Part shown: positions 10,105 to 32,038 of the stretch, in pieces
Layout: each line of letters starts with the position of its first letter
Numbering within the stretch: the stretch's first letter is position 1
Source: an uncultured delta proteobacterium
GTDB lineage: Bacteria > Desulfobacterota > Desulfobacteria > Desulfobacterales > JAFDCJ01
Direction: 5' to 3'
Assembly: GCA_963769935.1 (NCBI GenBank)
Contig: CAVYNY010000038.1
Coordinates: 58,448-122,447 of the forward strand
Length of the DNA stretch: 64,000 bases
Notes under the pieces: model-generated
Databases searched by the model: none
Told to the model about the DNA's origin: nothing
The model's input: the letters and a program-made list of their open reading frames with translations, nothing else
Made by a program: the position numbers and the translations under genes

Positions 10105-10926
10105 CTATTCGGGTGCGGCCTCATTGTAAATTAAAAATCGGGAGCCCTTGGCGCGCGCCACCAGGGTAATTCCCAGGTCCTGTGACAATTCCAGGGCCAT
10201 GCTGGTCGCACCGGATTTGGAGAGCAGTATGGGGATTCTCATGATGGCGGCTTTAATGACGATTTCAGAAGTGATGCGCCCGGTTGTATATAAAATTTTA
10301 TCACTGCCGGATATCTCCTCGATCAGCATTTTGCCGGAGATGACGTCAGCTGCATTATGCCGCCCGATATCTTCAATGTATATTAGAACGTCGCTTTGCC
10401 TGCAAAGCGCACACCCGTGAACGGATCCGGCCTTTCGATAAATCTCATTGTAACTATGAAGCTTTTTCAGTAAAGCAAAAACCGTTGACCGGTGAACTCG
10501 TCCTCCATTCAGGCGCGATTCATATATTTTATCCAATAGGCAATTGAATAAATTGCCTTGGCCGCATCCGCTGGTTACAATCCTGCCAAAGGCGGTCTGT
10601 CTCTCGTTAGGCAAGGGTTTATTCGAAGGCGTCGAGACGCTGACAACTTCATTTTCCCAGTCCACCGTTATGGAATCGATTTCACCTATATCGTTTATCA
10701 GGAGCTGATTCCGTAAAAATCCGACCGCCAATTCCTTGGGATGCGTTCCGATCGTCATCAGTGTTGCGAGATCGCTGTGATTTAACCGGATGGTCAAGGG
10801 GTTTTCGACCGGGACAAGCGTCGTGCAGGGATTTCCATCCTGATCTTTTGCTGCTGCCTGATGAACCTGCTTAAATTCCCCTGGAATCAATCCCGAACTT
10901 TGGTTTTTTTTCTCATGCCGGCTCAT
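10105..10926 (-). CDS. fdhD: FdhD/NarQ-family Moco sulfurtransferase
   Basis: ELAVGFL, TSGCGQG, GSVHGCAL, EDIGRHNA, TTGRITSEIV; ATG at 10926 overlaps the hcrA end. Confidence 0.9.
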   Translation of the reverse strand: MSRHEKKNQSSGLIPGEFKQVHQAAAKDQDGNPCTTLVPVENPLTIRLNHSDLATLMTIGTHPKELAVGFLRNQLLINDIGEIDSITVDWENEVVSVSTPSNKPLPNERQTAFGRIVTSGCGQGNLFNCLLDKIYESRLNGGRVHRSTVFALLKKLHSYNEIYRKAGSVHGCALCRQSDVLIYIEDIGRHNAADVISGKMLIEEISGSDKILYTTGRITSEIVIKAAIMRIPILLSKSGATSMALELSQDLGITLVARAKGSRFLIYNEAAPE

Positions 10927-13210
10927 GCTCTTTTCGCTTCTCTTCCAAGGCGGCCAGAACCTTCTCGGGTGTAATCGGCAGTTCCATGAAGTCAACGCCG
11001 ATGGCGTCGTAGATGGCATTGACGATGGCGGGCGCCGGCGACAGCTGGGTGCCCTCCCCGGCTTCTTTGGCGCCGAAGGGTCCGATCGGATCGTCGGTCA
11101 CCACCTCGATGGCCTCGATCTGCGGCATTTCGAGAAAGGTCGGAAAGCCGTAGTCGAGAAATGACGGATTCATCACCTGGCCCTTTTCGACAATGACATC
11201 TTCATACAAGGCCTGTCCCATGCCGCCCACAACCGATCCTTCCAGCTGACCCTCCACCAGCATTGGATTGATCGGACGGCCGCAGTCATGGGCCGTCACC
11301 ATCTTCAACAGCCTGACCCTGCCGGTCTGAAGGTCGACTTCCACCTCCGCGGCCTGGGTCATGAAGGAATAATTGGGCGCAAAATTGCCGCTTTCTTTAA
11401 ACAGGGTGGTCGGCTCGGAGGCGGGTGCCATCCAGGATCCCCGGCCCACAATGGGCATGGGAAGATCCGCGTATTGATAGCCCTTGAGAGCTTCGAGCAG
11501 CGTCAAGCCCTTTTCCGGCGATCCTTTAACATAAATTTTGCGGTCCCTGGCCTCCAGATCGGCCGGATTGGCTTCCAGTTTATCGGCCACGAATTCGAAT
11601 ATCTTGTTTTTGACGGCAATTGCTGCCAACCGCGCGGCATTGCCGGCCCTGACCGTCACCCCGCTGCCGAAGGTGCCGGGATCCAGCGGGGTAATCCCGG
11701 TGTCGGCCGCCGTTATCCGAATGTCTTCGATCGGCACGCCGAGTTCTTCGGCCACAATCTGGCTGATCACGGTTTCGGCGCCCTGCCCGATGTCGGCGGC
11801 ACCCGACAGTACATTGACGGCCCCGTCCCGGCCCACCTGAACCACCGCGCCGGAGCTGATATGACTCATATTGCTGACGCCGCTGGGAAAAGAGGCCCCG
11901 GCCAGACCGACACCCCTGCCGAATGGCAGCTTACCGCGTTTATCCTGCCACCCGATGGCAGCGGCGGCTTTGCCGACCGATTCGGCAAATCCGCAGGTAT
12001 TGATCACAAAACCGCCCGGATGGGGCTCACCGGCATGAATACTGTTTTTGATGCGGATCTCGGCCGGATCGACGCCGATACGGTCCGCGATCATGTCCAG
12101 CTGCCGTTCCACCGCAAAACGGGCTTGCGGAATGCCGTGGCCCCGCATGGCGCCGCCCACGGGTTTATTGGTATAAATATGCGAGCCTTCATAGTAGAGA
12201 TTCGGTACGCGATAGGGAATCATGAGGAAAAAACATGACAGGGCCATCATCGTCGGGGCGGTGCTGTTGTAAGCCCCGCCGTCCGCAAAAGCCTTATAGT
12301 CCTGTGCCAGAATCGTCCCATCCTTTTTCACGCCGGTCTTAACGGTAATATACATCGGATGCCTCTGCCGGGTGGCGATAAAGACTTCTTCACGCTCGTA
12401 CAGAAACTTAACCGGCCGGCCCAGGTGCATCGCAAACCAGGCCGCACAGAAATCCTTGGCAAACATATCAATCTTCTGACCGAAACCGCCGCCGACCTTG
12501 GGTTTGATGACGCGCACCTTGCTTTCCGGTATTTGAAGGGTATTCGATAAGTTCCTTCTGAGAAAAAACGGTATCTGGGTCGACGACCAGACCGTGAGTT
12601 CGCCGTTGAGCGGGTCAAATTGCGCCAGGGCCGCATGGGGTTCCAGCGGGGCATGATTCACCGGCTGGGAGTAAAAGGTGTCCTCAAAAACGGCATCACA
12701 TTCAGCAAACGCCTTGGCGACGTCGCCGAATTCCTTTTTGATGAAAAAAGAAGTATTGTTCTTGATCCCGTCATGGATCACGGGCGCACCATCTTTTTTG
12801 GCCTCCAGGGGATCGAATACGGCCGGCAGTTCTTCATAGTCCACCACGATTAGGCTCAGGGCCTCCTCGGCGATCTCGGGATCAACGGCACACACGGCCG
12901 CGACGTCGTCGCCGATATAGCGCACCTTGTCTTTGGCCAGCGCGTATTCATCCTTGGCCATGGGGACAATGCCGTACTTGCGGTCGGGTATTTCCCTGCC
13001 GGTCACGATCCCCTTGACGCCGGTCAGTTTCGCGGCCCTGGAAGTGTCGATACTGATAATTCTGGCATGCGCCACGGGGCTTCGCAATATCCTCCCGAAG
13101 AGCATTCCCGGCAGAACAAGATCATCGGTGAAAAGGGCGGCCCCTTTGACTTTCTGGGCTGCATCCAACATGGGCACGCGGGTTCCTACAACGTTAAATT
13201 CTTTTTCCAT
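10913..13210 (-). CDS. hcrA: 4-hydroxybenzoyl-CoA reductase-like alpha (Mo) subunit
   Basis: VGGGFG, GAMRGHG, ADIGQG, GAKEAGE; in an operon with an HcrB-type FAD subunit. Confidence 0.8.
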   Translation of the reverse strand: MEKEFNVVGTRVPMLDAAQKVKGAALFTDDLVLPGMLFGRILRSPVAHARIISIDTSRAAKLTGVKGIVTGREIPDRKYGIVPMAKDEYALAKDKVRYIGDDVAAVCAVDPEIAEEALSLIVVDYEELPAVFDPLEAKKDGAPVIHDGIKNNTSFFIKKEFGDVAKAFAECDAVFEDTFYSQPVNHAPLEPHAALAQFDPLNGELTVWSSTQIPFFLRRNLSNTLQIPESKVRVIKPKVGGGFGQKIDMFAKDFCAAWFAMHLGRPVKFLYEREEVFIATRQRHPMYITVKTGVKKDGTILAQDYKAFADGGAYNSTAPTMMALSCFFLMIPYRVPNLYYEGSHIYTNKPVGGAMRGHGIPQARFAVERQLDMIADRIGVDPAEIRIKNSIHAGEPHPGGFVINTCGFAESVGKAAAAIGWQDKRGKLPFGRGVGLAGASFPSGVSNMSHISSGAVVQVGRDGAVNVLSGAADIGQGAETVISQIVAEELGVPIEDIRITAADTGITPLDPGTFGSGVTVRAGNAARLAAIAVKNKIFEFVADKLEANPADLEARDRKIYVKGSPEKGLTLLEALKGYQYADLPMPIVGRGSWMAPASEPTTLFKESGNFAPNYSFMTQAAEVEVDLQTGRVRLLKMVTAHDCGRPINPMLVEGQLEGSVVGGMGQALYEDVIVEKGQVMNPSFLDYGFPTFLEMPQIEAIEVVTDDPIGPFGAKEAGEGTQLSPAPAIVNAIYDAIGVDFMELPITPEKVLAALEEKRKEHEPA

Positions 13211-13714: not shown

Positions 13715-14194
13715 CTAAGCATCCGGCGTGCTTTGCTCGGCGACACTCATCACGGCTTCTAAAATTTTCTTGTACCCGGTGCAGCGGCAGAGATTGCCGG
13801 CCATCTTTTTCTTGACCACCTCCTCGGTGGGATGCTCGTCTTCGTTTAAAATGGCCTCGGCCGTCAATATCATCCCCGGTGTGCAGAAACCGCATTGCAG
13901 TCCACCATGGTCGATGAAGGCTTTTTGCAGTGGATGCAGATCACCGCCGGCGGCTAAACCTTCAATGGTGATAATTTCTTTCCCCGCCGCATCGACAGCC
14001 AGCATCAAACAGGACAAATAGGCCTCGCCGTCGATCAGGACCGTGCAGGCGCCGCAGGCTCCCAGATCACATCCCCGTTTGGTTCCCATTAAGCCTAACT
14101 TTTCCCGCAGCACCTCCAGCAGGGTGTGGTTGGGAGCAACCAATAATTCATACGTATCGCCATTGACATTGAGTTCTATTGCCCGCTTCATCAT
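13715..14194 (-). CDS. hcrC: 4-hydroxybenzoyl-CoA reductase-like gamma ([2Fe-2S]) subunit
   Basis: GTKRGCDLGACGACTV, QCGFCTPG, GNLCRCTGY. Confidence 0.85.
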   Translation of the reverse strand: MMKRAIELNVNGDTYELLVAPNHTLLEVLREKLGLMGTKRGCDLGACGACTVLIDGEAYLSCLMLAVDAAGKEIITIEGLAAGGDLHPLQKAFIDHGGLQCGFCTPGMILTAEAILNEDEHPTEEVVKKKMAGNLCRCTGYKKILEAVMSVAEQSTPDA

Positions 14195-14279: not shown

Positions 14280-15251
14280 TCATTTCAAATCCCGGCTTTT
14301 CTCGGCAGCGCCGCGCAGCAGCAATCCCATCATCTTGCGTTTATGGGACGGGGAATAGAGCGAAGTTTTCACCGGACTGGCCTCCTTGGCGGCAAGGTCG
14401 CAGGCGGCCCTGATGTTCTCGTCGGTGAGCTCCCGGCCCTGCAAAAATTCTTCGATGTTTTTGCCTCGCAAGGGCTTGCGATCAACGGCTGTAAAAGCGA
14501 CCCGGTATTCTTTTTCCTCCGCGGACGCCCAGAAAGCAGTACCCACAATCGGAAAATCAATGCTGTCGCGATTGGCAAATTTCATATAACTTAAAACCCC
14601 GTTGATTGACGCGCCGGGGATTACGATTTCGGTTAAAATCTCGGTACCTGCCAGGGTGAGGGGCGCCTTGCCGTTGCCGGTAAAAAGCTTCTGTAATGGT
14701 ATCTCCCGTTCACCGCCACTGCCGGCCAGTTTGACGCCGGCATTCAAGGCCAGAAGCGCCGGTGCCAGATCGCCGCAGTAGGTTGAATAGCAGATCTCTT
14801 TTTTGTTGACCACGTGGCAGATCTCGCCGCCCGCCTTAAAGCAGGTCGGCCGGGAACTTCGCCACCATTTGGATTGATTGAAGTACTTGCAGCGGTTCTG
14901 CTGGCAGATATTGCCGCCGACGGTTCCCATCACCTGGTGATGATAGGAACCGACGCAGGAAGCAGCCCGGGCTAAACCAGGCAGGTTGTCCGCAACCGGG
15001 CCGGTCATGTAGAGGCGTTTCAGGGGAGCCAGGGCGCCGACCCGCATATCTCCGTTATCCTGCCGTATGTAATTCAGATCGGCGATTCGTTTGATATTGA
15101 CGACAGCCGGCGGGCATTCAACGCGGTATTTCATGTTAACCAGCAGATCGGTTCCGCCGGCGAGGATTCTGGCATCCGGTTCATTTTGCAGAATAGACAC
15201 CGCCTCCCGGATGTTCTTGGGCTCAAAATATTCAAATTTAGGTAGTCTCAC
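14280..15251 (-). CDS. hcrB: 4-hydroxybenzoyl-CoA reductase-like beta subunit (FAD + [4Fe-4S] insert)
   Basis: AGGTDL plus the HcrB-type four-Cys insert RCKYFNQSKWWR...TCFK...ICHV...ICYSTYCGDLAPAL; GTG start. Confidence 0.85.
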   Translation of the reverse strand: MRLPKFEYFEPKNIREAVSILQNEPDARILAGGTDLLVNMKYRVECPPAVVNIKRIADLNYIRQDNGDMRVGALAPLKRLYMTGPVADNLPGLARAASCVGSYHHQVMGTVGGNICQQNRCKYFNQSKWWRSSRPTCFKAGGEICHVVNKKEICYSTYCGDLAPALLALNAGVKLAGSGGEREIPLQKLFTGNGKAPLTLAGTEILTEIVIPGASINGVLSYMKFANRDSIDFPIVGTAFWASAEEKEYRVAFTAVDRKPLRGKNIEEFLQGRELTDENIRAACDLAAKEASPVKTSLYSPSHKRKMMGLLLRGAAEKSRDLK

Positions 15252-15418: not shown

Positions 15419-15574
15419 ATAGTTTCAAGATACCTGTCTCTATTATGATCCCGATCTTATTGTCAACAATTAAATTCTTATAAGAGTTCAGGGTTCAAAC
15501 GTTAAAATGTGAAATTATTTTTGAGTGAGCCCTAAGTAGGGGCGGGCTTTACGCCCGACCGGATTAGGTGCCGT

Positions 15575-15724: not shown

Positions 15725-16516
15725 ATGAAACTATCGGCTGCGGAAAATTCAATCTACCGGGTCCAGGCCCTGGAGCGAGCGCTGGACATTCTGGACTGTT
15801 TCAATTTCCAGAACAGGGAACTAAGCCTGGCCGATGTGGTATGCCGCACCGGACTCAACAAGACCACCGCCAAGCGGCTGATTTCGAATCTGACAACGCG
15901 CGGTTATTTGCAGCAGGACCCCCAAACCAGAAAGTATCAGCTCGGCATGCGTCTGTTTGAGCTGGGCGGCGTTGTTTTTTCATCCTTTTCCCTGCGCCGG
16001 TCAGCCGCCTCTCCCATGACCGGCCTTCAGAATAAAACCGGTGCCACCGTGCTTCTGGGCGTCAGAATGGAGGATCAGCTGGTTTATGTCGACAAACGCG
16101 AGGGCGACGGTATGATCCGTATTTCATCGGATGTCGGCTGGCGCCGGCCGTTGCACTACGGCATGCTGGGCATGGTGCTGATGGCCAGTCTCGAATCAAA
16201 GGAAGTTGATCGGATCCTGAAAAAATATCCCCTTGAAGCCCACACCCCCTTCTCGATTACCGATATCGATGCATTCAGCCTGCGGTTGGAAGAAATTCGC
16301 GTTCAGGGGTATGCCGTTGAGAAAGAAGAAGCCGTTGAAGGTCTGGTTGGTATTGCCGCCCCCATAAAGAATTACAGCCGTCAGGTCGTGGCGGCGCTCG
16401 GCCTGGCGTTGCCCCTCGGCCGGCGCAATCTGAATGAAGATTTGGCTGGAATTGTGAAATCGGTGAAATATACTTGCGATTTGATTTCATCCGAATTGGG
16501 TTATTTGAAGATATAG
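15725..16516 (+). CDS. IclR family transcriptional regulator
   Basis: ALERALDIL HTH start, YQLGMRLFELG, RVQGYAVEKEE..GLVGIAAPI. Confidence 0.95.
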   Translation: MKLSAAENSIYRVQALERALDILDCFNFQNRELSLADVVCRTGLNKTTAKRLISNLTTRGYLQQDPQTRKYQLGMRLFELGGVVFSSFSLRRSAASPMTGLQNKTGATVLLGVRMEDQLVYVDKREGDGMIRISSDVGWRRPLHYGMLGMVLMASLESKEVDRILKKYPLEAHTPFSITDIDAFSLRLEEIRVQGYAVEKEEAVEGLVGIAAPIKNYSRQVVAALGLALPLGRRNLNEDLAGIVKSVKYTCDLISSELGYLKI

Positions 16517-16526: not shown

Positions 16527-18134
16527 ATGAAAATCTACGAATCTTTATCACTGGGACAAGTCCTGGAAAGAGGTGCCGCTCAAGCGCCTGATAAAGTCGC
16601 CGTGGTGGATGGCATTCAACGGAAGACTTACCGCGAATTGAACGCCATGGTCAACGCGCTGGCCGTCAGTCTGTCTGAAATCGGATTAAAAAAAGGAGAT
16701 CGAATCGCCCTTCATATGCCCAATTCCATAGAGTTGCTGACCGCCTTTTATGCCCTGCAAAAATTAGGCGCCGTCGTCGCCTGGGCCAATCCCATTTATC
16801 GCCGGAACGAGGCTCAGTTCATACTTAAAAATTCAGAGGCCCGAGGGGTGTTTATTTTCAGCAATTGGGATGGCAGAAATTATCATGATGACATTCTGAA
16901 TCTGAAAGACGAGCTGCCGGACCTGGAGTTCGTTTTCGCCGTCGGCAGCAATCAGGGCCAGGGCGTGTATTCCTTCTCTGATTTAGTCGGCAAGGGGATG
17001 GAGAAAACTTTTTCTGCTGAGCCTGTCGACCCTTTAACCGATCTGGCCATGCTGCTTTATACCTCCGGAACCACCGGCCGTCCCAAGGGGGCGATGATCA
17101 CCCATTATGCTGCGGTCAGGGCGGCCTGGGAATACTCCTTAGGTGTTGAGGCTTCTTCAGAAGACATTTTTATCGGCTTTTTGCCCATGAGCCATTCCTA
17201 CGGCTGCGGATCGATTCTGATTCAGCCCCTGCTGCTTCAGGCGACCGTGGTATTGATGGACAAATTCGAGGTGGAGAAAGCCTTTCAACTCATCGAGCAG
17301 GAAAAGATTACCCTGCAATTGGGCGCACCACCTCACTATATCCTGGAGTTAAGCCACAAAAGTCGACCCGCTTTTGACCTCAGTTCCGTGCGCGCCGGGA
17401 TGATTGCCGGCATGATCGCACCCGAGGGCCTGATAACGCGGGTCGATAAAGAGATGGGGATATATTTGACCTCTTTCTGGGGGGCTTCCGAAGTCGGGCC
17501 GGGACTGGGAACCATGTGCCCCTACCCTTCCCCGCTGGATATCCGGGAAAAATACATCGGCCAACCGGTGGCCGGCACTCAAATGCGAATTGTCGATCCC
17601 GTCACCCATGAAGAGCTGCCCGACGGGGAGATTGGAGAGCTGACCCTCAAAGGCTGGCATGTCATGCAGGGCTATTGGAAAAATCCGGCGGAAACCCAAA
17701 GACAGATTATCGATGGATGGCTTCACATGGGAGATCTGGCATCCAAAGAAGCAAACGGCTACCTGAAAATTTACGGGCGCACCAAGGACCTGATCAACCG
17801 CGGCGGCTATAAAATTTATCCCTATGAACTGGAATGCCTGCTGGTCGAACATCCCAAAGTCGAACAAGTCTGCATCGTCGCAACGCCGAATCCGGTTCTG
17901 GGCGAATCCATCTGCGCTTGTGTAGTCCCCAAACCGGGTCAAACAGTTACTCTGGCAGAAGTCAGGGAGTTACTGCAGGATCGGGTTGCCCCGCATAAAC
18001 TGCCCGACGAACTTTGTGTCATGGAAGATTTCCCGAAGTTATCCGGCGGTATAAAAATTAAAAAATTCGGCCAGGGCGGCCTGGCGGAGTTGGCCGATAA
18101 GGACGAATCCAGGCAAAAAATTCGAAAGAAATAA
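16527..18134 (+). CDS. Acyl/aryl-CoA ligase (AMP-binding, ANL family)
   Basis: YTSGTTGRPKG, WGASE, GWLHMGD, GRTKDLINRGG. Confidence 0.95.
   Translation: MKIYESLSLGQVLERGAAQAPDKVAVVDGIQRKTYRELNAMVNALAVSLSEIGLKKGDRIALHMPNSIELLTAFYALQKLGAVVAWANPIYRRNEAQFILKNSEARGVFIFSNWDGRNYHDDILNLKDELPDLEFVFAVGSNQGQGVYSFSDLVGKGMEKTFSAEPVDPLTDLAMLLYTSGTTGRPKGAMITHYAAVRAAWEYSLGVEASSEDIFIGFLPMSHSYGCGSILIQPLLLQATVVLMDKFEVEKAFQLIEQEKITLQLGAPPHYILELSHKSRPAFDLSSVRAGMIAGMIAPEGLITRVDKEMGIYLTSFWGASEVGPGLGTMCPYPSPLDIREKYIGQPVAGTQMRIVDPVTHEELPDGEIGELTLKGWHVMQGYWKNPAETQRQIIDGWLHMGDLASKEANGYLKIYGRTKDLINRGGYKIYPYELECLLVEHPKVEQVCIVATPNPVLGESICACVVPKPGQTVTLAEVRELLQDRVAPHKLPDELCVMEDFPKLSGGIKIKKFGQGGLAELADKDESRQKIRKK
17638..18126 (+). 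repeat. Direct repeat copy 1 (489 bp, 3' end of the CoA ligase)
   Basis: Matches 25124-25612 with two substitutions seen (~17951, ~18098). Confidence 0.95.
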
Positions 18135-18265
18135 AATCCAAGAAGTTATGCTTTGCAATGACCGAAATTTAATCTTACATCTAAGAAAATCGAGACAGAA
18201 CTTGATCTGACAATATGCCTGAAAATGGTATGTTTACAGTACCTGTAATTTTGAGAGGCCCGATT

Positions 18266-18400
18266 TTATGCAGATACCCCAACTAATTCAAATTCTGCAT
18301 CCTCAGTAAACATTGTCAATACTTTATCTACGTCTTTTCGATTGACCGCGTCCTTAAAAGATTCAACCAGACTTTGGAGATTGATAGTTTCTGCCATCAT
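18266..18400 (-). pseudogene. Truncated SnoaL/NTF2-like protein (44 aa)
   Basis: GAGGAG RBS; MMAETINLQSLVESFKDAVNRKDVDKVLTMFTEDAEFELVG then a stop. Confidence 0.6.
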
Positions 18401-18469
18401 TCAGTCTCCTCTTTTTGAATATTAAGACGGCAATTTTTGACTTGAGTAACAGAGAATAAAGTAATATCC

Positions 18470-18498
18470 CCCAACCCCCGGCTCTGCCGGGGGTTGGG
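18470..18498. other. Perfect 13-bp hairpin; terminator or IS200/IS605-like end
   Basis: cccaacccccggc-tct-gccgggggttggg. Confidence 0.6.
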
Positions 18499-18624
18499 AG
18501 CTACCTAAAGTAAATTATTAATCGGAGCAGGTGAAGTTTGATGCTGAGTCGACTACACCGTACCCGTTGTATTTCGGCCATGTCGGATACTCGCACAGCC
18601 GCTGGGTGCGGCCCACATGGACGG

Positions 18625-20687: not shown

Positions 20688-20688
20688 T

Positions 20689-20985: not shown

Positions 20986-21076
20986 TAATGCACACAACAA
21001 CCGCTGATAAAGTACAGAACCCCGGGGGACGGAAATTATCACCGCCCCTCTGGTTTCCGGTTTCGAGCATTAACTG

Positions 21077-23008: not shown

Positions 23009-23574
23009 ACCGTTGCCTCCTTTATAGTATAGACTTGATTTGTAATGAGATCTTTCTTTGCAATACTATCGAGATTACCCATAATTGTTCTTTGAAAAAT
23101 TTACTTAATTTTAACAGGCTGATATGCGCATTTGAATGCCTTTTGGCATTCGAAGGTATGGACGAATTATATCAAGCGACATCATTTCGAAACTAAAGGA
23201 TCAGACAGCACCTGTTCATAAGGGCTCATTATGGTTCATTCAGAAAAACGGTTGAAACTCAAATATAGATATGGAAAATATATAGAGATGAAAAAAGTGA
23301 GCTGAATAATATTCTAATATAAAATCTCTGTCAAGTTCTAATTATAATCTGATATAACATATTAAATATATATGGAATATATTATTTTTTTTAGATAACT
23401 CCGAATTTTAGTTTTTCCCCTAATTAATATATATTTTGTCGAATATTGCTCGATATTAGTGAATAATATTGCCAAAATCAAATAAAGAGCTATAGGTTTA
23501 TTGCCGTTTTAAAGACAATCCGTTTGATCCCGCTGCTTTTCAGCAGGGCTTACTGATTTTGCAAGGGGTAACTA

Positions 23575-24747
23575 ATGATGAGCGAAAAGAAGCAAAAAAT
23601 TCTGGATGCGGCCGAGCGTATTATGTCTGCCAAGGGACGAAGCGCTACAATCAGCGAAATAAGCGCCGCTTCTGGGGTAACGGATTCTGTGCTCTATCAT
23701 TATTTCGAAAACAAAGAGGACTTACTTTTCTCTGTCGCACAAGAGCACCTCAGGGATGCACTGGAAAAATTGGATGAACAACTCCAGGGCATCATGGATC
23801 CGGTCAATCAGCTTAGTAAGTTAATATGGTTTCAACTGTATTACCATGACACTCACCCTGACTATGGAAATCTCCTTTTGTTCGAATGTCGCTCAAGCAA
23901 GCGGTTTATGAACCATGAGGCTTACGGATTGATTAAGCGTTGGTCCGGCATCGGAATAGAAATTCTCAACAATGGAATTTCTGACGGCTCTTTCCGCAAA
24001 GACCTTGCCCTCCCAATAGTTCGTGATGCAATTTTTGGATTGGTTGATATGGAAAATATTCAGTTCCTGACTGCACGAGAACAGCTACAGGCACATAAGG
24101 ACCTGGACGCTATTTTGGACCTCGTGCTGCCGATGATTCGACCCGATACAGAGGAGTGTGCCCCTAAAAACAACAAGGCCGGCAGAATACTGGCGTCTGC
24201 TTTAAGCGTTTTTGCCGCAAAAGGATTTCAGAACGCTACGGTACAGGAGATTTCAAAATCGGCGAATGTGTCTGAAGGAACTATTTACGAATATTTTAAC
24301 AACAAGGAAGATTTGCTCTTTTCCATACTTGAGCGGCAATTTCAGAACAATCTTGATTTGCTTGATGAGTTGTTTGAAGTCAGGACCCCGCTGCGCAAAC
24401 TAAAACGCTTCATGCGCTATCATTTCACGATCTATCTTACCCAGCCTGTTTTTGTAAAAGTTTTTTTGTTTGATGCGATTTACAATTCCGGCTTCTACGC
24501 CTCAAACGCCTATCAACCCTTTAAGCAATACATCGAAAGCATCTATGCGATTCTTGACGAGGGTAAAAAAGATGGCAGTATACGGCCGGAAATCAATAAT
24601 CGTGTATTCAGAAATCTTTTTATGGGAATCTTCAGCCACATGGCCTTGAGGTGGCTGTTTACGCAAAAAGGCCGCCAGACTGATAAAATCGAAGAGATTA
24701 ATGCGGCCGTTGCCCTTTTAAGCCGATCCATTGCGTCAAAAAAATAA
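23575..24747 (+). CDS. Tandem double-TetR transcriptional regulator
   Basis: Two TetR HTHs: ATISEISAASGV..LYHYFENKEDLL and ATVQEISKSANVSEGTIYEYFNNKEDLL. Confidence 0.92.
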   Translation: MMSEKKQKILDAAERIMSAKGRSATISEISAASGVTDSVLYHYFENKEDLLFSVAQEHLRDALEKLDEQLQGIMDPVNQLSKLIWFQLYYHDTHPDYGNLLLFECRSSKRFMNHEAYGLIKRWSGIGIEILNNGISDGSFRKDLALPIVRDAIFGLVDMENIQFLTAREQLQAHKDLDAILDLVLPMIRPDTEECAPKNNKAGRILASALSVFAAKGFQNATVQEISKSANVSEGTIYEYFNNKEDLLFSILERQFQNNLDLLDELFEVRTPLRKLKRFMRYHFTIYLTQPVFVKVFLFDAIYNSGFYASNAYQPFKQYIESIYAILDEGKKDGSIRPEINNRVFRNLFMGIFSHMALRWLFTQKGRQTDKIEEINAAVALLSRSIASKK

Positions 24748-25123
24748 AGTTCACGGACCGTGAGGTCTAATCCGGCTAACCGAATATCGGCACAAAAAAC
24801 TGATGCTAAATTGCCTGTTCGCAGCCGTATCCAAAACCCTGGTGACTTTCGGTGAAATTTAATCTTAATTTCGGTATACATAAAAGTAGGCGGGAAACTA
24901 TATGCAACTAAGACGTTGTTGATCTATTAAAATCTCAATTTTATCTTTAATTTGGGGGTTGTAGGCAAAAAAAGTGCTAAAATTTGCTAATCTTTTAATC
25001 CGAATCGAATGATATTAATGAGTTAGGTGGTTTGTACCTTTAGCCGAAGCTCAAAAACTTGTAGGCACATGTTTTAACAATATTTGAGTGCGAAACAAAT
25101 TAAAAAGAACCGTTATGTTTAAA

Positions 25124-25620
25124 AGCTGACCCTCAAAGGCTGGCATGTCATGCAGGGCTATTGGAAAAATCCGGCGGAAACCCAAAGACAGATTATCGAT
25201 GGATGGCTTCACATGGGAGATCTGGCATCCAAAGAAGCAAACGGCTACCTGAAAATTTACGGGCGCACCAAGGACCTGATCAACCGCGGCGGCTATAAAA
25301 TTTATCCCTATGAACTGGAATGCCTGCTGGTCGAACATCCCAAAGTCGAACAAGTCTGCATCGTCGCAACGCCGAATCCGGTTCTGGGCGAATCCATCTG
25401 CGCTTGTGTAGTCCCCAAACCGGGTCAAACAGTTACCCTGGCAGAAGTCAGGGAGTTACTGCAGGATCGGGTTGCCCCGCATAAACTGCCCGACGAACTT
25501 TGTGTCATGGAAGATTTCCCGAAGTTATCCGGCGGTATAAAAATTAAAAAATTCGGCCAGGGCGGCCTGGCGGAGTTGGCCGAAAAGGACGAATCCAGGC
25601 AAAAAATTCGAAGGAAGTGA
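25124..25620 (+). pseudogene. Direct repeat copy 2: 5'-truncated CoA ligase 3' end
   Basis: Near-identical to 17638-18126; no upstream ligase sequence; ends KIRRK versus KIRKK. Confidence 0.9.
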
Positions 25621-25648
25621 TGGTCGCTCAACAAACCACCGGCAATAC

Positions 25649-26464
25649 CTACCTTTTCTTGAGACTCAAAATTTCTCGGGCCTCATCGGGAGTCGCAATT
25701 TCACGTCCGCACTCCCGGGAAATCCTGACAATACGCTCGACAAACTGGGCATTGGTTTTAGCCAGAACACCTTTGGCGTAGTATAAGCTGTCTTCCAAAC
25801 CGACCCGGATGTGACCTCCCATCACGAGCGCCAGCATGGACATCGACAGCTGCCATCTGCCGGCCCCGATGACGGACCAGGTGGAAGACTGCGGGATATG
25901 ATCCAGCAAGTGCAGCAGGGATTTCGGCGTTGCGGGAGCACCCCAGGGTGTTCCCAAAACCAATTGAAAATGAAGCGGTTCATCTACCTTTCCCTGATCT
26001 CTCAAATGCAAAGCGGTAATCAGCATGCCGAGGTCGAATGTTTCAAATTCAGGCTTAACCCCGTTGTCTCTCATTTTTTCGGCTGCCCGATCCAGAAACT
26101 CCGGTGAATTCACATAAACAGAACGGCCCCGATTGAAGGAGCCGGCATCAAAAGAGGCCAGCTCCGGTTTTAAATCAACCGGTGCCAGCCGTTCCTCGGT
26201 GGCAAAGTTTCCGCTGGTGGTCAGGCATAAGATCAGATCGGTTCTCTCCCGCAGCGGTTCCACCACCTGCCTGAAAACCTCCACATCCTGCGTGCCAAGG
26301 CCCGTTTGCGGGTCCCGGACATGGATATGAGCGATGGCGGCCCCCGCCTGCCAGCATTCATAGGCCGACTGGACAATTTCTCCCGGCGTTAAGGGAATAT
26401 AGGGAGTCATCTCGCGGGTGATCCGGCCGCCGGTAATGGCGGCGGTAATGATGAGTTTCTCCAC
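25649..26464 (-). CDS. Beta-keto acid cleavage enzyme (BKACE/Kce, DUF849)
   Basis: IITAAITG, AGAAIAHIHVRD, PELAS, GGHIRVGLED, EIATPDEAR. Confidence 0.93.
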   Translation of the reverse strand: MEKLIITAAITGGRITREMTPYIPLTPGEIVQSAYECWQAGAAIAHIHVRDPQTGLGTQDVEVFRQVVEPLRERTDLILCLTTSGNFATEERLAPVDLKPELASFDAGSFNRGRSVYVNSPEFLDRAAEKMRDNGVKPEFETFDLGMLITALHLRDQGKVDEPLHFQLVLGTPWGAPATPKSLLHLLDHIPQSSTWSVIGAGRWQLSMSMLALVMGGHIRVGLEDSLYYAKGVLAKTNAQFVERIVRISRECGREIATPDEAREILSLKKR

Positions 26465-26702
26465 GTCAGGAACCTCTCGCGCTTGAGTTAAAAACCAGCA
26501 GGAAGTATTGGTTACTAGTCGCCTTAGTAGGTTTCAGGTGTTCCGCCTTCGGCGGACCGATGGCCAAAGCAACGGCCGGTCTGATCGAAAAATAAAACTG
26601 AATAATTCACCGCCGAGTTCGCGGAGGAACGCTGAGAAAATTCTCAGACAATTTTTCTTAACCTCAGCGATCTCAGCGGTCTCTGCGGTGAGTTGCATCT
26701 AA

Positions 26703-28061
26703 CTATTTATCCCGATGCTGTTTGACCTGCTCCAGGACGCGATCAATAAAGTGCTGGGTTTGACCGAGATAATTTTCCGGTTTGGCCAGCGTCTCCCAGT
26801 CTATTTTATTCTGCGGCGCTGTCGCGCCGAACTTTTGTTTGACAACTTCAATCAGTGAGCGGTTTTCAGCGGCGGCAACGCCGCAGGCCTGCTTCACCAG
26901 GGCCTGGGCCTCGGGACGTGAAATTTCGGCCGACAGCGCCTGAACCGCGGCCTCCGCCAGCACGAGATCATTCGAACGTGCAATATTTTCCCGCATCGCG
27001 TCTTCATTGACCTTGAGATTTTTAGCCAGAAACAAGGCGTTCCTGAGCGCTCCGCCCGTTAATACGATCATCTGGGAAAGGGTCAGCCACTCAACCTGCC
27101 AGCCATGGGTGGCCCGCTCGTGTTCCTGGATCATGGCCTGATGCATGGCCGACAAAAGGGATGCATTCGTGCGGGCTGCTGCAATGATGAGTTCGCTGAC
27201 AATGGGATTGCGCTTCTGCGGCATGGAGCTGCTCCCTCCGCGGTCCGGCTCGCCCGATTCCGCGACCTCCCCGACTTCATTCTGGGCCAGCAGAATGATG
27301 TCCTGGGCCATCTTGGCCAGGCTGGCTGTGAGCATACTCAACCAACCGGCGAACTCGGCCAAACTGTCCCGCTGACTGTGCCACGGCATCAGCGGCAGAC
27401 TCAAATCCAGCTCCCGCGCAAGGGCCTGCATCACAGCCATTCCATTGTCTCCCAGCGCCGCCAGGGTGCCGGCTGCTCCGCCGAACTGGAGCTGCAGCAG
27501 CCCGCTGCGCTGGGCGGCCAGCCGGTTTCGGTGCCGCAGCAGCGGCGCGAGCCAGCCCGCTGCCTTTAAGCCGAAGCTGACGGGCAGGGCTTGCTGGCCA
27601 TGGGTTCGTCCGGCCATCACCGTTGCACGATGACGATCGGCCAATTCTGCCAGGCCACCGATGATCATTGCCAGCCGATTCTCCATGATTCCCAGCGCGG
27701 AACGAATCTGAAGCACCGTTGCCGTATCGACAATATCCTGCGTGGTTGCCCCCCAGTGGACGTAGGGTGCCGCTTCCCGGCCGACGGCTGCCCGCAAAGC
27801 CTTTACCAGCCCGATGACGGGGACGCCGTCGCGCAGCATGCCTTGTCCGATCTGCTGTGGATCCAAGGCGACGCTGCCGGCAATTTTTGAGATCCGTTCG
27901 CCCGCCGCGGAAGGGATGATGCCCAGCCTCGCTTCAACCCGGGCCAGGGCGCCTTCGACCGCGAGCATGGCCCGCAGAAAAGCATCGTCGTCAAAGAGCC
28001 CGGCAATTTCCGGATCACTGAAAAGCGGGCCGAATATTTTAGAATCGAGAGGTAGAGTCAT
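26703..28061 (-). CDS. pcaB: 3-carboxy-cis,cis-muconate cycloisomerase
   Basis: HWGATTQD, GRTHGQQA, GGSSSMPQKRNP, QEHERATHGWQVEW; next to pcaG. Confidence 0.9.
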   Translation of the reverse strand: MTLPLDSKIFGPLFSDPEIAGLFDDDAFLRAMLAVEGALARVEARLGIIPSAAGERISKIAGSVALDPQQIGQGMLRDGVPVIGLVKALRAAVGREAAPYVHWGATTQDIVDTATVLQIRSALGIMENRLAMIIGGLAELADRHRATVMAGRTHGQQALPVSFGLKAAGWLAPLLRHRNRLAAQRSGLLQLQFGGAAGTLAALGDNGMAVMQALARELDLSLPLMPWHSQRDSLAEFAGWLSMLTASLAKMAQDIILLAQNEVGEVAESGEPDRGGSSSMPQKRNPIVSELIIAAARTNASLLSAMHQAMIQEHERATHGWQVEWLTLSQMIVLTGGALRNALFLAKNLKVNEDAMRENIARSNDLVLAEAAVQALSAEISRPEAQALVKQACGVAAAENRSLIEVVKQKFGATAPQNKIDWETLAKPENYLGQTQHFIDRVLEQVKQHRDK

Positions 28062-28064
28062 GCT

Positions 28065-28667
28065 TCACGCATCAAAAAACGCGGTTTCGTTCTCGCCCTG
28101 GATGTGAATATCGAAGCGGTAGATTACTTTGCCTTCCGCCTTTTCGCGACCGGCAATCAGGGTATTTCTCCGGGCTGGGTCGTCAATGCTCACCAGGACG
28201 GGATCGTTTTGATTGGCGGCTTCGCCTTCGAAGTAGATCCGGGTGAACGCATGCGACAGCATGCCACGCGCAAACACGATGACATTGATATGCGGCGCCT
28301 GCAGGGTATCATTCGATCCCGGAACCATGCCCGGTTTGATGGTTTCAAACCAGTAGTTGCCGCTGGTGTCGGTTGCTGTCCGTCCGTGTCCCATGAATTC
28401 GGGATCGAGCGGTTTAGCCTGTTCGTCTAAAGGGTGATGGTAGCGTCCATGCCTGTTTGCCTGCCAGATTTCGATCAAGGCATCTTCAATCGGATGTCCC
28501 TCGCCGTCGGTAACACAGCCTTCGATCCGGATTCGCTCACCTTCCGTTTTTTCTGAGACCAGAACATTGGTAAATATTTTATCACCTGCACGCAGAAGCC
28601 CCTGGGAAAAATAGGGGCCGACCGTCTGGGAGGGGCTTTGAGTCATCATCGGATTGTAGGGTTTCAT
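28065..28667 (-). CDS. pcaG: Protocatechuate 3,4-dioxygenase alpha subunit
   Basis: PSQTVGPY, IEIWQAN, QAPHINVIVFARG, TRIYF, ETAFFD. Confidence 0.95.
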   Translation of the reverse strand: MKPYNPMMTQSPSQTVGPYFSQGLLRAGDKIFTNVLVSEKTEGERIRIEGCVTDGEGHPIEDALIEIWQANRHGRYHHPLDEQAKPLDPEFMGHGRTATDTSGNYWFETIKPGMVPGSNDTLQAPHINVIVFARGMLSHAFTRIYFEGEAANQNDPVLVSIDDPARRNTLIAGREKAEGKVIYRFDIHIQGENETAFFDA

Positions 28668-29383
28668 TTTCTCCCCTTAAACGGTGTCTCCTCCCGTCCT
28701 CTGAGCACAAAATCAAACCGGTAGCCCAGCGCCGAACCGGGTTCGGAAACATCGTGGGAAAATTTGGCAACCAGCCGCTGCCGGGCTTTCTCATCGGGGA
28801 TACCGTTGAATATGGGATCCAGTGGAATCAGCGGGTCGCCGGGAAAATACATCTGAGTTACGAGGCGCGTCACGAATGCCGAACCAAACAGCGAAAAATG
28901 GATGTGGGACGGGCGCCAGGCATTATAATGGTTGCCCCATGGATACGGTCCCGGTTTTATACTGACGAATCGATACTCGCCCTTTTCGTTGGTCATGCAG
29001 CGGCCGGCACCCGAAAAGTTGGGATCCAGGGGCGCATCGTGCTGATCACGTTTATGCGGGTAGCGGCCGGCGGCATTGGCCTGCCACACTTCGATCAGGG
29101 TGTTGGCCACCGGACGTCCATCCTCTTCCAGCACCCGCCCGGTAACGATGATCCGTTCCCCTATGGCTTCACCCCCCCTGCCCGCGTTGGTGGTCAGATC
29201 ACTGTCGCCGGGTTGAACGGTGTCATGTCCGTAAACCGGTCCGGTAATTTCCGATAAGGTCTGGATCAGCGGTATGAGTGGTTTGCGGGGCGACCGCAGC
29301 GGCGTCGACCGGTAGGGTTCATAGAGATACGGCGGATGTACGCTCCAGTCCCGTGGTCCGTACCGCTTGATTTTTAATTGCAT
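28664..29383 (-). CDS. pcaH: Protocatechuate 3,4-dioxygenase beta subunit
   Basis: SEITGP, WQANAAGRY, PGPYPW, WRPSHIHFS (Fe ligands Tyr, Tyr, His, His intact); overlaps the pcaG start. Confidence 0.95.
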   Translation of the reverse strand: MQLKIKRYGPRDWSVHPPYLYEPYRSTPLRSPRKPLIPLIQTLSEITGPVYGHDTVQPGDSDLTTNAGRGGEAIGERIIVTGRVLEEDGRPVANTLIEVWQANAAGRYPHKRDQHDAPLDPNFSGAGRCMTNEKGEYRFVSIKPGPYPWGNHYNAWRPSHIHFSLFGSAFVTRLVTQMYFPGDPLIPLDPIFNGIPDEKARQRLVAKFSHDVSEPGSALGYRFDFVLRGREETPFKGRK

Positions 29384-29655
29384 GTTTATCCCTCGCAAGA
29401 TGGCACTTCAGAAACTGCCTAGGATTCCAAAATACTGCATGTGTCTAAAGCTCAAAAAAATGCCTAAAATGCGCTAAAGTGACTAAAATGCCTAAAATTA
29501 ATGTATTCTGTCGTTTTATATGAACTATCAACCGGCGCGTCAACGCCATAGCCTTCTTTCTTTATCTTTTATCCTTTAGCCTTTCACCTTTTTCCTTTAT
29601 CCAGCAGCCAAGCCAACTCAATAAACTCAACAAACTCAATAAACCCAATCCACGC

Positions 29656-30039
29656 TCACCCCTTCCCATCCATCTCGTCATACACGCGCTTGGCAACGGC
29701 AAAGGCCGAATTGGCAGCCGGAACGCCCGCATATACAGCGACCTGCATAAAGACTTCTTTGACTTCATTGCGCGTAACGCCTGTATTGCGGGTGGCCCGC
29801 ACATGCAGGGCCAATTCCTCATGCTTGCCCAGCGCCGCCAGCATTGCGATGGTGAGCAATTGCCGCGTCTTAATTTCAAGACCCGGCCTGACCCAAACGG
29901 AACCCCAGGCACATTCTGTAATGTAGCGCTGAAAGTCGTTGTCAAAATCCGACTTCTGGGCTTCGGCGCGTGCGACATGATCTTCGCCGAGCACAGATTT
30001 ACGAATCTGCATACCTTTTTCGAACTTTTCGTCAATCAC
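29656..30039 (-). CDS. pcaC: 4-carboxymuconolactone decarboxylase
   Basis: RKSVLGEDHV, FQRYITECAWGSVW, VYAGVPAANSAF. Confidence 0.93.
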   Translation of the reverse strand: MIDEKFEKGMQIRKSVLGEDHVARAEAQKSDFDNDFQRYITECAWGSVWVRPGLEIKTRQLLTIAMLAALGKHEELALHVRATRNTGVTRNEVKEVFMQVAVYAGVPAANSAFAVAKRVYDEMDGKG

Positions 30040-30313
30040 TGCGGATGCCCTCCAGAAAATCGATTACCTGTCGCGAAAATAACTCCGGTTGCTCGACACA
30101 GGAAATATGAGAGGCACCTTCAATAAGGGAAAATTCCGCCCCGATCACGGCCCCGGCGAGTTCCCGCGCAAGTTCAGGCGGCGTGGCCAGGTCCTGGTCG
30201 CCGCACAACACCAGCGTCGGCCGCTTGATGGCGGCGGCGACTTCACGCAAGTCGGCGTCCCGAACTGCGCAGCACGTGCCGATGTACCCCTCGACGGGTG
30301 TTCTTTCCAGCAT
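30032..30313 (-). pseudogene. pcaD: 3-oxoadipate enol-lactonase, C-terminal third only
   Basis: EGYIGTCCAVRDADLR, PTLVLCGDQDLATP, HISCVEQP; the N-terminal part with the catalytic Ser is absent and upstream DNA is AT-rich non-coding. Confidence 0.8.
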
Positions 30314-30856
30314 AATGAACGACTTTATTTACTTCTACAAAAGACATGCCTGAACACCCGACCAGGTTAAAAGAAAATCCAACAGGCGGAACCCGAAAAT
30401 GAAAATAACAAGGAGAAAATCAGCTCTGATTGCCGGAGTCGAATAAGTATACCTGCAAACTAAACACTGGTGAAGAATTATCAAGTAGTCTGCTTTAAAA
30501 TATCTCCTTCGCCCTGGTGTTTCTCGGATCGTGGCAAAATCAGAAAGTTGACTTTCATTGAGTTAATGCTTAAGTAACCGTTCAGGAATATGAGGTTCAG
30601 GGTTCAGTGTTCAAAGGTTCATGGCTCTATTTCGATTGGAAATGTGACCAATAATGTGACCAATAAATATGGAAGTTAATGAACTCTATCGTTATAATTT
30701 AGGCTGAAGTTAATGGCGGGAAGACTTCGGCAGGTAGCGACTGGGCTAAACCCTGCCTGTGCGATCAAAGCGCGCAGCGCGAAGCCCCAAACCACTGAAC
30801 CTCTGAACCCCCTGAACCCTGCACCTCTGAACCCTTTCCAAAAAGGAGTTCTTCCA

Positions 30857-32038
30857 ATGAAGACAGAGACGCAAGTCGGCATCATCGGGGCCGGTCCGTC
30901 CGGCCTGCTGCTCTCTCATCTGCTGCACCTGGAGGGCATCGACTCGGTTGTGCTGGAAGCGCGCAGCCGCCAATATGTCGAGGAACGCGTGCGGGCAGGC
31001 GTTCTTGAGCAGGGTACGGTCGACCTGCTGTGCGAGACCGGCCTCGGCGACAGACTCCGGCGTGAAGGACTGGTGCACCACGGCATCGAGCTGCGTTTCG
31101 ACGGCCGCGGTCATCGGATCGCCCTGAGCGATCTTACCGGCGGCCGTGCCATCTGGATCTACGGCCAGCAGGAGGTCGTCAAAGACCTGAACAATGCCCG
31201 GCTGGCAGCGGGCGCAACGATCCACTTCGAAGTAAATGACGTGCGGCTGGCCGGCATCGAGTCTGCCAGCCCTGTTATTCAATACCGCAAAGATGACCGG
31301 GAGCACACTCTGGCCTGTGATTTCATTGCCGGGTGCGACGGATTCCACGGTGTGTCGCGGGATTCGATTCCGAGCGGCGTCCTGCGGACCTACCAGCACG
31401 ATTACCCGTTCGGATGGCTGGGGATTCTGGCCGCCGTCGCACCGTCGACCAAAGAGTTGATTTATGCCTCTCACGACCGGGGGTTCGCCCTGCACAGCCT
31501 CAGAACCCCTGAAATCAGCCGCCTATACATTCAGGTGAACCCCGACGCGGACATCAATGAATGGCCGGATGAACGCATCTGGGAAGAACTCAGCCTGCGC
31601 CTGGCTACCGATGACGGCTGGACGCTGACCGACGGACCGATCCTGGAAAAGGGCATTACTTCTCTGCGCAGCTTCGTTGTCGAGCCCATGCAGCACGGCC
31701 GGCTGTTCCTGGCGGGGGACGCCGCGCACATCGTGCCTGCCACCGGGGCCAAGGGGTTGAACCTGGCGGTGCATGATGTGCGGATACTCGCGGAAAGCCT
31801 CACCGCCTGGTTCCGCACCGGTGCCACCGAGCTCCTTGAGCAATACTCAACCAAGTGCCTGCGCCGGGTTTGGCGAGTCCAGGATTTCTCGGCATTTATG
31901 AGCCTGATGCTGCACCGTTTTCCCGACGACGACGGATTCAGGGGCCGCCTGCAACGCGCGCAGCTGGCGTACGTCTGCAGCTCGGAAGCTGCGGCACGCA
32001 GCCTGGCGGAGAACTATGTCGGACTGCCGCATGTATAA
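30857..32038 (+). CDS. pobA: 4-hydroxybenzoate 3-monooxygenase
   Basis: GAGPSG, RAGVLEQG, GCDGFHG, YPFGWLG, LAGDAAHIVPATGAKGLN, AENYVGLP; ATG at 30857 after AGGAG. Confidence 0.95.
   Translation: MKTETQVGIIGAGPSGLLLSHLLHLEGIDSVVLEARSRQYVEERVRAGVLEQGTVDLLCETGLGDRLRREGLVHHGIELRFDGRGHRIALSDLTGGRAIWIYGQQEVVKDLNNARLAAGATIHFEVNDVRLAGIESASPVIQYRKDDREHTLACDFIAGCDGFHGVSRDSIPSGVLRTYQHDYPFGWLGILAAVAPSTKELIYASHDRGFALHSLRTPEISRLYIQVNPDADINEWPDERIWEELSLRLATDDGWTLTDGPILEKGITSLRSFVVEPMQHGRLFLAGDAAHIVPATGAKGLNLAVHDVRILAESLTAWFRTGATELLEQYSTKCLRRVWRVQDFSAFMSLMLHRFPDDDGFRGRLQRAQLAYVCSSEAAARSLAENYVGLPHV

Follow-up and report, generated by a model that had tools for sequence, protein, structure and literature searches.

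Can a sulfate-reducer-type bacterium carry an O2-dependent and an anaerobic route for 4-hydroxybenzoate side by side, and do both belong to it? This question was raised by a window of 64,000 nucleotides (nt), the last 64 kb of contig C38 (CAVYNY010000038.1, 122 kb) in the genome of an uncultured Desulfobacterales bacterium (assembly GCA_963769935.1, here G000; 7.99 Mb in 41 contigs, estimated completeness 96.7%, estimated contamination 5.4%). Its pobA and pca genes, for the O2-dependent route, lie 11-16 kb from an hcrBCA-like operon related to 4-hydroxybenzoyl-coenzyme A (CoA) reductase, a proximity that an initial annotation of the window had pointed out and that we confirmed. The pob/pca genes are native to the genome, conserved in relatives and under purifying selection. 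Judged from sequence, the whole is probably a native, lineage-conserved hybrid cluster that would serve the use of 4-hydroxybenzoate under both micro-oxic and anoxic conditions.

Genes were identified by family scans together with a listing of open reading frames (ORFs). NCBIfam and Pfam scores were compared with curated cut-offs, and matches to PDB chains were recorded. Profile searches of G000 detected dsrA on contig C18 (620.2 bits, cut-off 392.85), and the adjacent second subunit is dsrB. DsrA was 90-94% identical to that of uncultured Desulfobacterales metagenome-assembled genomes (MAGs), including a gutless-oligochaete symbiont, and the titles of the nearest DsrA loci (81-94% identity) were almost all Desulfobacterales, Desulfobacteraceae or delta proteobacterium. 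The gene for the ring-hydrolysing BamA/Oah (TIGR03200) was found on contig C34 (563 bits, cut-off 464.45). The predicted gene content identifies the host as an uncultured sulfate-reducer-type Desulfobacterales bacterium, which agrees with the Desulfobacterota-like character proposed earlier. Terminal oxidases, named in the initial annotation beside dsrAB and bam genes as telling for the host, were present as well. G000 encodes four heme-copper-oxidase family genes, among them a CtaD-type gene above its cut-off (684.4 against 670.75 bits) and CyoB-like and CcoN-like genes, and two cytochrome bd genes. Because several terminal oxidases are encoded, the label of a strict anaerobe that had been attached to this lineage is not established for G000. 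Of the 151 genomes sampled from the order, only 7 gave strong matches to A-type heme-copper oxidases; within the genus such matches were seen in G000 and G255, and none in G010, G094, G147, G224 and G281. A link between the pca cluster and A-type oxidases was considered and dropped, since G286, G688, G689, G690 and G692 carry pca genes and gave no strong A-type match.

The O2-dependent half comprises pobA, pcaH, pcaG, pcaB and pcaC. All five reading frames are intact, as had been described before, and the four pca products score above their family cut-offs (Table 1). PobA scored above the cut-off of subfamily PRK08243 (610.6 against 351) and 5 bits short of that of equivalog TIGR02360 (533.3 against 538.7), measured on the 441-amino-acid ORF at 30713-32038; the real start is the ATG at 30857 behind AGGAG. 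Every PDB match of PobA at E <= 1e-50 was a p-hydroxybenzoate hydroxylase (26 of 26). The pcaH and pcaG genes lie side by side with a 4-nt overlap. PcaH was aligned without gaps to chain 2pcd_M of P. putida, and Tyr108, Tyr147, His160 and His162, which we take to be the four Fe(III) ligands, were all matched, bearing out what had been claimed for the iron site. IclR-family regulators resembling PcaR and PobR stand at both halves of the cluster. No pcaIJ or pcaF gene was found within the cluster (a genome-wide search for them was not made).

The origin of the cluster was assessed by composition, repeats and synteny. Tetranucleotide distances from the genome centroid placed the 8-kb chunks over 13.5-45.5 kb of the window at the 4th to 21st percentile, and only 1-13 kb and 53-64 kb were compositionally atypical. 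The spacers of both halves contain dispersed repeats with dozens of copies each, on 12-30 other contigs. Hits elsewhere in G000 numbered 50 for the hcrA/hcrC spacer, 71 for hcrC/hcrB and 115 for hcrB/iclR1 (30 contigs). On the other side they numbered 78 for the spacer between pcaB and the neighbouring gene of the BKACE family (21 contigs), 130 for pcaH/pcaC (25 contigs) and 15 for the spacer between the pcaD remnant and pobA. These counts confirm that the pca/pob spacers contain native repeats, as had been proposed earlier. Strict tandem arrays of 7-9 nt had a density of 11.8 per 100 kb in the genome and 2.55 in 79 control loci from other phyla (4.6-fold); such arrays lie in the pca/pob spacers at 29457, 29615 and 30790 and also in the matching spacers of locus L133 and genome G255. 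A lenient tandem-repeat count (score >= 30) was rejected as a marker of nativeness, as it did not discriminate between genome and controls (39.2 against 32.7 per 100 kb). To either side of the block, the flanks are collinear with those in G224, a same-genus genome without pcaH (ligase 80% identical, molybdenum enzyme 92%, ferredoxin 85%, PaaK-like ligase 83%, thioesterase 79%). Window 18135-33222 was tried as an insertion relative to G224; its direction is undecidable since the block is present in loci L225-L227, and it is recorded as a presence/absence difference only. DNA runs of two studies contained short contigs at >= 95% identity across both halves.

Some of the repeats are of interest in their own right. 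An element of about 35 nt (window 15492-15540, peak 15503-15536) occurs 115 times over 30 contigs, its copies being about 94% identical, and produced a depth spike in all four runs. For the dispersed repeats of about 65-80 nt at 35312-35560 and 39980-40056, G000 contains 133 and 54 further copies, and each of the five same-genus genomes searched gave dozens of matches at 80-90% identity; they form a genus-wide small repeat family.

Conservation of the arrangement was followed through the BKACE protein, whose search returned 38 loci that were examined for pca and hcr neighbours. In three of these (L225, L226 and L227) pcaC-pcaH-pcaG-pcaB-BKACE faces ligase-iclR1, followed by hcrB, at 66-90% identity, and pobA lies at the far end in all three. 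L225 belongs to the assembly with the closest DsrA, L226 to a Desulfosarcina sp. MAG and L227 to a gutless-worm symbiont; judged by accession prefix, the assemblies of L225 and L227 also contain DsrA 94% and 93% identical to that of G000. L224 has BKACE-ligase-iclR1-hcrBC without pca, and the other 34 loci have neither. In the same-genus genome G255, pobA/pcaHGB are found on one contig and hcrACB/iclR1-ligase on another; iclR1 is kept beside hcrB there and in L224-L227. L133 contains pcaGHCD/pobA. The dsrA-positive genome G286, from another Desulfobacterales family, has a separate complete cluster with the order pobA-pcaD-C-H-G-BKACE-pcaB. The idea that the arrangement is peculiar to this contig had to be abandoned, as the same cluster occurs in at least three other Desulfobacterales genomes. 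That the combination is unexpected in the lineage was borne out: pcaH exceeded its cut-off in 3 of the 301 genomes sampled from the order and in 2 of the 401 from the phylum, G000 included. At locus L102 (G286:C111) the pob/pca genes are flanked by genes for an aldehyde-ferredoxin-oxidoreductase-family protein, an Fe-S protein and a double-cubane reductase with its activase (5256-7705 and 17125-19202).

The closest PobA proteins outside Desulfobacterales, 74-76% identical, come from Actinomycetota MAGs. In a rapidly built tree of 82 rows, for which the loci had been drawn with query-derived patterns and are a biased sample, G000, L133 and G255 grouped together (Shimodaira-Hasegawa-like approximate likelihood ratio test, SH-aLRT, 92) inside a mostly Actinomycetota group (89-92), and none of the starred branches contained this grouping. 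The gene order is D-C-H-G-B here and H-G-B-D-C in the nearest Actinomycetota loci. An old horizontal transfer of the pob/pca half into the clade is likely from these relationships; the tree does not identify its donor.

The pob/pca genes are under purifying selection. Against L133 and G255, the ratio of nonsynonymous to synonymous substitutions (dN/dS) was 0.08-0.12 for pobA, 0.05-0.11 for pcaH, 0.12-0.20 for pcaG and 0.14 for pcaB (G255); for pcaB and pcaC it was 0.14-0.17. All five genes fell between 0.05 and 0.20, with pN far below pS, and these ratios are rough, as dS is near saturation (0.9-1.7, and 2.7 for the 157-codon pcaB piece of L133). Ratios near 1, which the initial annotation had named as speaking against functional genes, were not seen. 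Two RNA-library runs of one study yielded contigs 95-99% identical over hcrC, iclR1, ligase, BKACE, pcaB, pcaG/H and pobA, a weak hint of expression, as DNA can occur in such libraries and the contigs are no proof of transcription. RNA-library cover was almost absent over 18.1-24.1 kb (one X17 bin, depth 0.55) and absent over 32.1-33.4 kb, and was not used as evidence of silence.

Table 1. Features of the hybrid cluster and its immediate surroundings, in window coordinates; scores are in bits, with the curated cut-off after the stroke
Feature	Position	Strand	Match or remark
fdhD-like, FdhD/NarQ-family sulfurtransferase-like gene, downstream of hcrA	10105-11019	-	PF02634, 232
hcrA-like, molybdenum subunit, xanthine-dehydrogenase family	10913-13210	-	TIGR03194 best family, 752.6 / 994.55
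hcrC-like, [2Fe-2S] subunit	13715-14194	-	Fer2_2 and Fer2 domains; TIGR03193, 183.7 / 257.8
hcrB-like, flavin adenine dinucleotide (FAD) subunit with Cys-rich insert	14280-15251	-	TIGR03195, 249.2 / 404.55
iclR1, IclR-family regulator, divergent from hcrB	15725-16516	+	PcaR/PcaU/PobR subfamily best, 152.9 / 284.75
Acyl-CoA ligase	16527-18134	+	generic AMP-binding models only; benzoate-CoA ligase family, 201.6 / 375.25
Tannase/feruloyl-esterase family gene, three frames	18625-20687	-	PF07519 pieces in three ORFs
Carboxylesterase, frame-broken	21522-23008	-	PF00135; N-terminal 222 of 515 profile positions in ORF
Tandem-fused double TetR regulator	23575-24747	+	two TetR_N domains and C-terminal domains
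Duplicate of ligase 3' end, 494 nt	25124-25617	+	copy of 17638-18131, 4 differences, 99.2%
BKACE-family beta-keto acid cleavage enzyme	25649-26464	-	PF05853, 340
pcaB, 3-carboxy-cis,cis-muconate cycloisomerase	26703-28061	-	TIGR02426, 403.9 / 355.75
pcaG, protocatechuate 3,4-dioxygenase alpha subunit	28065-28667	-	TIGR02423, 238.1 / 126.25
pcaH, protocatechuate 3,4-dioxygenase beta subunit	28664-29398	-	TIGR02422, 353.3 / 296.4
pcaC, 4-carboxymuconolactone decarboxylase	29656-30039	-	TIGR02425, 184.9 / 155.7
pcaD remnant, 3' third, 93 codons	30032-30313	-	TIGR02427 positions 164-251 of 251, 101.5 / 255.85
pobA, 4-hydroxybenzoate 3-monooxygenase, divergent from pca genes	30857-32038	+	best PDB match 7on9, 497
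iclR2, second IclR-family regulator	32331-33176	+	52% identical ortholog adjoins molybdenum enzyme in G286
Acetylene-hydratase-like Mo/W enzyme (bis-molybdopterin guanine dinucleotide type), first gene of collinear flank	33235-35319	+	best PDB match 2e7z, 403

For the anaerobic half, the best PDB match of HcrA is 1rm6_A (557 bits), and its ortholog in G255 is 83% identical. HcrB matched 1rm6_B best (172 bits). This alignment was gapless through the extra Cys-rich segment, which presumably binds a [4Fe-4S] cluster, and all five Cys of chain residues 116-154 were matched, so that the insert reported earlier proved real. Among the FAD subunits of G000, it is found only in this HcrB and in the copy at a locus on C20; the subunits at C38:63366, C36 and C11 show 36-38 gaps there. 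The initial annotation had described an hcrBCA-like operon with a divergent CoA ligase. The genes are present as described; the specific identity is less secure, with all three subunits below their equivalog cut-offs and a ligase of generic type. The latter is a candidate 4-hydroxybenzoate-CoA ligase by position only. In the fdhD-like gene the family match begins at residue 62-71, and the true start is therefore probably internal; NCBIfam FdhD models scored below their cut-offs.

Two further loci of the xanthine-dehydrogenase type were observed. A second operon with FAD, [2Fe-2S] and molybdenum subunits lies at window 4877-8737, with a G+C content of 0.60 and atypical composition. Its molybdenum subunit has the top HcrA score of the genome (894.9, cut-off 994.55), and its FAD subunit is without the Cys-rich insert. 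The C20 locus (G000:C20:290870-293959) has an FAD subunit with five of six insert Cys and a molybdenum subunit matched as three separate pieces, which may be frame-broken.

The product of the BKACE gene beside pcaB could cleave 3-oxoadipate with acetyl-CoA and replace PcaIJ and PcaF. The window protein scored best on the Kce model (331, cut-off 382) and reached 222.4 on the 3-oxoadipate:acetyl-CoA acetyltransferase model NF053568 (cut-off 350). On the latter model the BKACE of G286, encoded between pcaG and pcaB, scored 462.9; the window gene adjoins pcaB as well, and its product is 40% identical.

The layout of the window differs from that of its relatives at the boundary between the halves. 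The 494-nt ligase copy lies 31 nt from the BKACE stop, and the full ligase is found on the far side of the esterase/TetR block, at a distance of 7 kb. In L224 and L226 BKACE has the end of the full ligase as its immediate neighbour. Because the relatives have the ligase 3' end at this place, the copy marks the original ligase end; the two halves were therefore originally back to back, and the 7-kb insert and the ligase-end duplication were gained in G000. Misassembly was considered for a 300-nt exact repeat and rejected, as both copies have unique flanks and the second stands at the relatives' ligase-end position; the repeat marks a real rearrangement. In L225 and L227 one AAA-ATPase gene of about 375 amino acids (L225:6093-7208, L227:5958-7100) lies between BKACE and ligase, and this junction is a recurrent insertion site.

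Both esterase genes of the inserted block are frame-broken, and their reading as pseudogenes was not upheld. Contigs of run X1 have an additional G behind 19485 and one base less at 19813, which lengthens the longest tannase frame from 307 to 608 codons; the C-terminal domain match stays in another frame after these changes. For the carboxylesterase, an additional C behind 21976, at a run of C, lengthens the frame from 371 to 514 codons. A homopolymer is present at just one of the three sites (19485, 19813 and 21976), and assembly error and strain polymorphism are inseparable as the source of these single-base differences. The 3' end of the tannase region contains a 12-nt tandem array (7.5 copies, 18616-18735), and the 5' part of the carboxylesterase gene a 138-nt tandem duplication (83% identity, 22640-22915).

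At the other end of the pca genes, pcaD is truncated, which the initial annotation had not noticed. Homology to the full-length pcaD of L133 ends near 30317, and the break is spanned by one contig from run X2 (30284-30809, 2 differences). The gene is full length in L133, L227 and G286; 91 codons could be aligned in the window, 29 in L226 and none in L225, and in G255 neither pcaC nor pcaD was found within the 40 kb examined about the cluster. Thus pcaD has been lost or truncated repeatedly, and all breaks lie toward the repeat-rich pobA spacer. The sole other PcaD-like gene of G000, on contig C13 (266.7 bits, cut-off 255.85), lies among unrelated genes. It was considered as a stand-in; its neighbours (aldolase, amidohydrolases, peptide ATP-binding cassette transporter) are uninformative either way. 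Another hydrolase may cover the PcaD step.

From these data the following course is proposed for the hybrid cluster. In the O2-sensitive half the ligase would activate 4-hydroxybenzoate to its CoA ester and the HcrBCA-like reductase would remove the hydroxyl group reductively, the product feeding a benzoyl-CoA pathway that may employ the bamA product encoded elsewhere in the genome. In the O2-dependent half PobA would form protocatechuate, PcaHG would cleave the ring, PcaB and PcaC would process the cleavage product and BKACE may then cleave 3-oxoadipate. The availability of O2 would presumably choose the route. The pob/pca half would have entered the clade by an old horizontal transfer and been kept since under purifying selection. 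In the probable original layout the halves stood back to back with ligase and BKACE convergent, as in three relatives. Later, in G000, the esterase/TetR block would have been inserted and the ligase 3' end duplicated, and pcaD lost its 5' two-thirds.

Several points weigh against this proposal. HcrA, HcrB and HcrC all score below equivalog level, and two HcrA-like paralogs, at window 6404-8704 (894.9 bits) and on C18 (798.5 bits), score higher than the HcrA of the cluster. The ligase is of generic type and is coupled in G224 to a different molybdenum enzyme. BKACE lies below every curated cut-off, and Desulfobacterales often carry relatives of it (63-79% identical) with neither pca nor hcr genes nearby, as at the 34 loci above. 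Because pcaD is truncated, the O2-dependent route is incomplete in cis, and pcaD is truncated or absent in four of the seven clusters seen. The cluster is patchy, with pcaH in one of seven other genus members, and the roughness of dN/dS and the ambiguity of RNA libraries have been mentioned.

One alternative, which we regard as rather unlikely, holds that the halves are not alternative routes for one substrate, and that Hcr-like enzyme and ligase serve a different aromatic acyl-CoA within a general aromatic island. The low subunit scores would fit such a role, as would the presence of at least four HcrA-like paralogs in G000, the generic ligase with its place in a G224 operon beside the acetylene-hydratase-like enzyme, and the tannase-family and carboxylesterase genes in the same island. 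It has to be set against the best PDB matches of two subunits, both chains of 4-hydroxybenzoyl-CoA reductase, and the conserved Cys of the HcrB insert. Moreover, a PcaR/PobR-like IclR gene stands between hcr operon and ligase, and the hcr-iclR-ligase unit is found beside pca in four genomes.

The fate of pcaD bears on a second alternative, an oxygen sink. The initial annotation had raised aromatic-coupled O2 scavenging, besides a hybrid island for changing redox conditions, as a possible role, and the repeated loss of pcaD is compatible with it. Here the main reason for retaining the module would be the consumption of O2 by PobA and PcaHG, one molecule each per substrate molecule, which would protect the neighbouring O2-sensitive Hcr-like and benzoyl-CoA enzymes during O2 pulses; selection would not act on carbon gain through a full beta-ketoadipate route. 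The pair of PcaHG and protocatechuate is used in vitro as an O2-scavenging system. The repeated loss of a late step with remnants of differing size, the lack of pcaC and pcaD beside the G255 cluster, the continued selection on pobA, pcaH and pcaG and the position directly beside the hcr operon are all compatible with this explanation. However, pcaB and pcaC consume no O2 and are conserved nonetheless, full pcaD is kept in L133, L227 and G286, the host has dedicated O2 reductases and the PcaD-like paralog could cover the step, and we consider it unlikely. A more elaborate form, which we offer as a speculation of low probability, is that this clade, the gutless-worm symbiont included, keeps pob/pca fused to hcr as a built-in oxygen sink and switch that burns the shared substrate pool of 4-hydroxybenzoate and protocatechuate during O2 intrusion and thereby removes O2 and shields the anaerobic aromatic enzymes. 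This would explain why pcaD is lost repeatedly and the O2-consuming steps stay under selection.

Truncated or absent pcaD, the patchy distribution within the genus and the frame-broken esterase neighbours could also suggest that pob/pca is a decaying relic, leftovers of an old transfer that no longer function. We find this improbable in view of the low dN/dS with pN far below pS, the intact pobA and pcaHGBC frames with matched catalytic residues, the retention of the genes across at least six genomes and their cover by RNA-library contigs; the esterase frame breaks, too, coincide at three places with single-base differences in another data set. A contaminated or chimeric contig, with aerobe DNA joined to a sulfate-reducer genome, could draw on the bin estimate of 5.4% and the Actinomycetota relatives of PobA and is very unlikely, as the initial annotation had argued, given the native composition, host-wide repeats inside the pca spacers, the 99.2% ligase-end copy beside BKACE, flanks collinear with a congener, the same junctions in three other assemblies and cover of both halves by DNA runs of two studies.

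The hybrid cluster, which remains our preferred reading, is made of ordinary members of known enzyme families. With the protocatechuate branch of P. putida, Acinetobacter baylyi and Actinomycetota it shares the pobA and pcaH/G/B/C families, the PcaH residues and an adjacent IclR regulator; it differs in its dsrAB-bearing Desulfobacterales host, the truncated pcaD and a BKACE gene instead of pcaIJ/pcaF in the cluster. The three-subunit Mo/FAD/[2Fe-2S] architecture and the Cys of the beta insert are those of HcrABC from Thauera aromatica (PDB 1rm6, 1sb3), whereas the scores below equivalog level, the gene order B-C-A and the downstream fdhD-like gene are not. Facultative Proteobacteria such as Thauera, Aromatoleum and Rhodopseudomonas carry both 4-hydroxybenzoate routes; in contrast, the routes are here physically joined in a conserved cluster, in a sulfate-reducer-type lineage with rare pcaH. 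New are the lineage, the physical fusion of the routes, their conservation including a symbiont, and the link to BKACE. For sulfate reducers, the literature searched yielded neither a paper that treats pobA or pcaGH nor a description of such a joined cluster. In passages of PMC11704145 and PMC11742803, Desulfobacterota MAGs are credited with benzoyl-CoA pathways alone, or pobA is listed with no lineage attached.

Desulfobacterales sulfate reducers are usually seen as strictly anoxic degraders of aromatic compounds. Here an oxygenase route is conserved, selected and joined to an anaerobic one, and its carriers are a worm symbiont and several uncultured Desulfobacterales known from data sets of soil, marsh and marine sediment. 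This suggests that supposed anaerobes may attack aromatic substrates directly with O2 where oxic and anoxic zones meet. Transcripts and enzymes of pobA, pcaHG and hcr are targets for testing such O2-dependent substrate partitioning. Where marker-gene surveys take pcaGH or pobA as a sign of "aerobic degraders", sulfate reducers can be among the organisms counted.

Beyond the cluster, the collinear flank at 33235-36508 consists of the acetylene-hydratase-like enzyme, an Lcl_C-domain gene and a 4Fe-4S dicluster protein. In G224 the ligase ends 11 nt before the acetylene-hydratase-like gene, and this ligase-first unit suggests an anaerobic pathway that would couple a CoA ligase to that enzyme. Toward the low-G+C (0.37-0.46), atypical contig end there are two AAA_22 ATPase genes and a pentapeptide-repeat/TIR-domain gene (44402-46747, 52230-53057 and 58293-59657), which may be defence-related. 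At 48270-51994 a gene for a sigma factor of the extracytoplasmic function type (DUF6596) is followed by three YCII-domain genes, a glyoxalase-family gene and an AHSA1-family gene.

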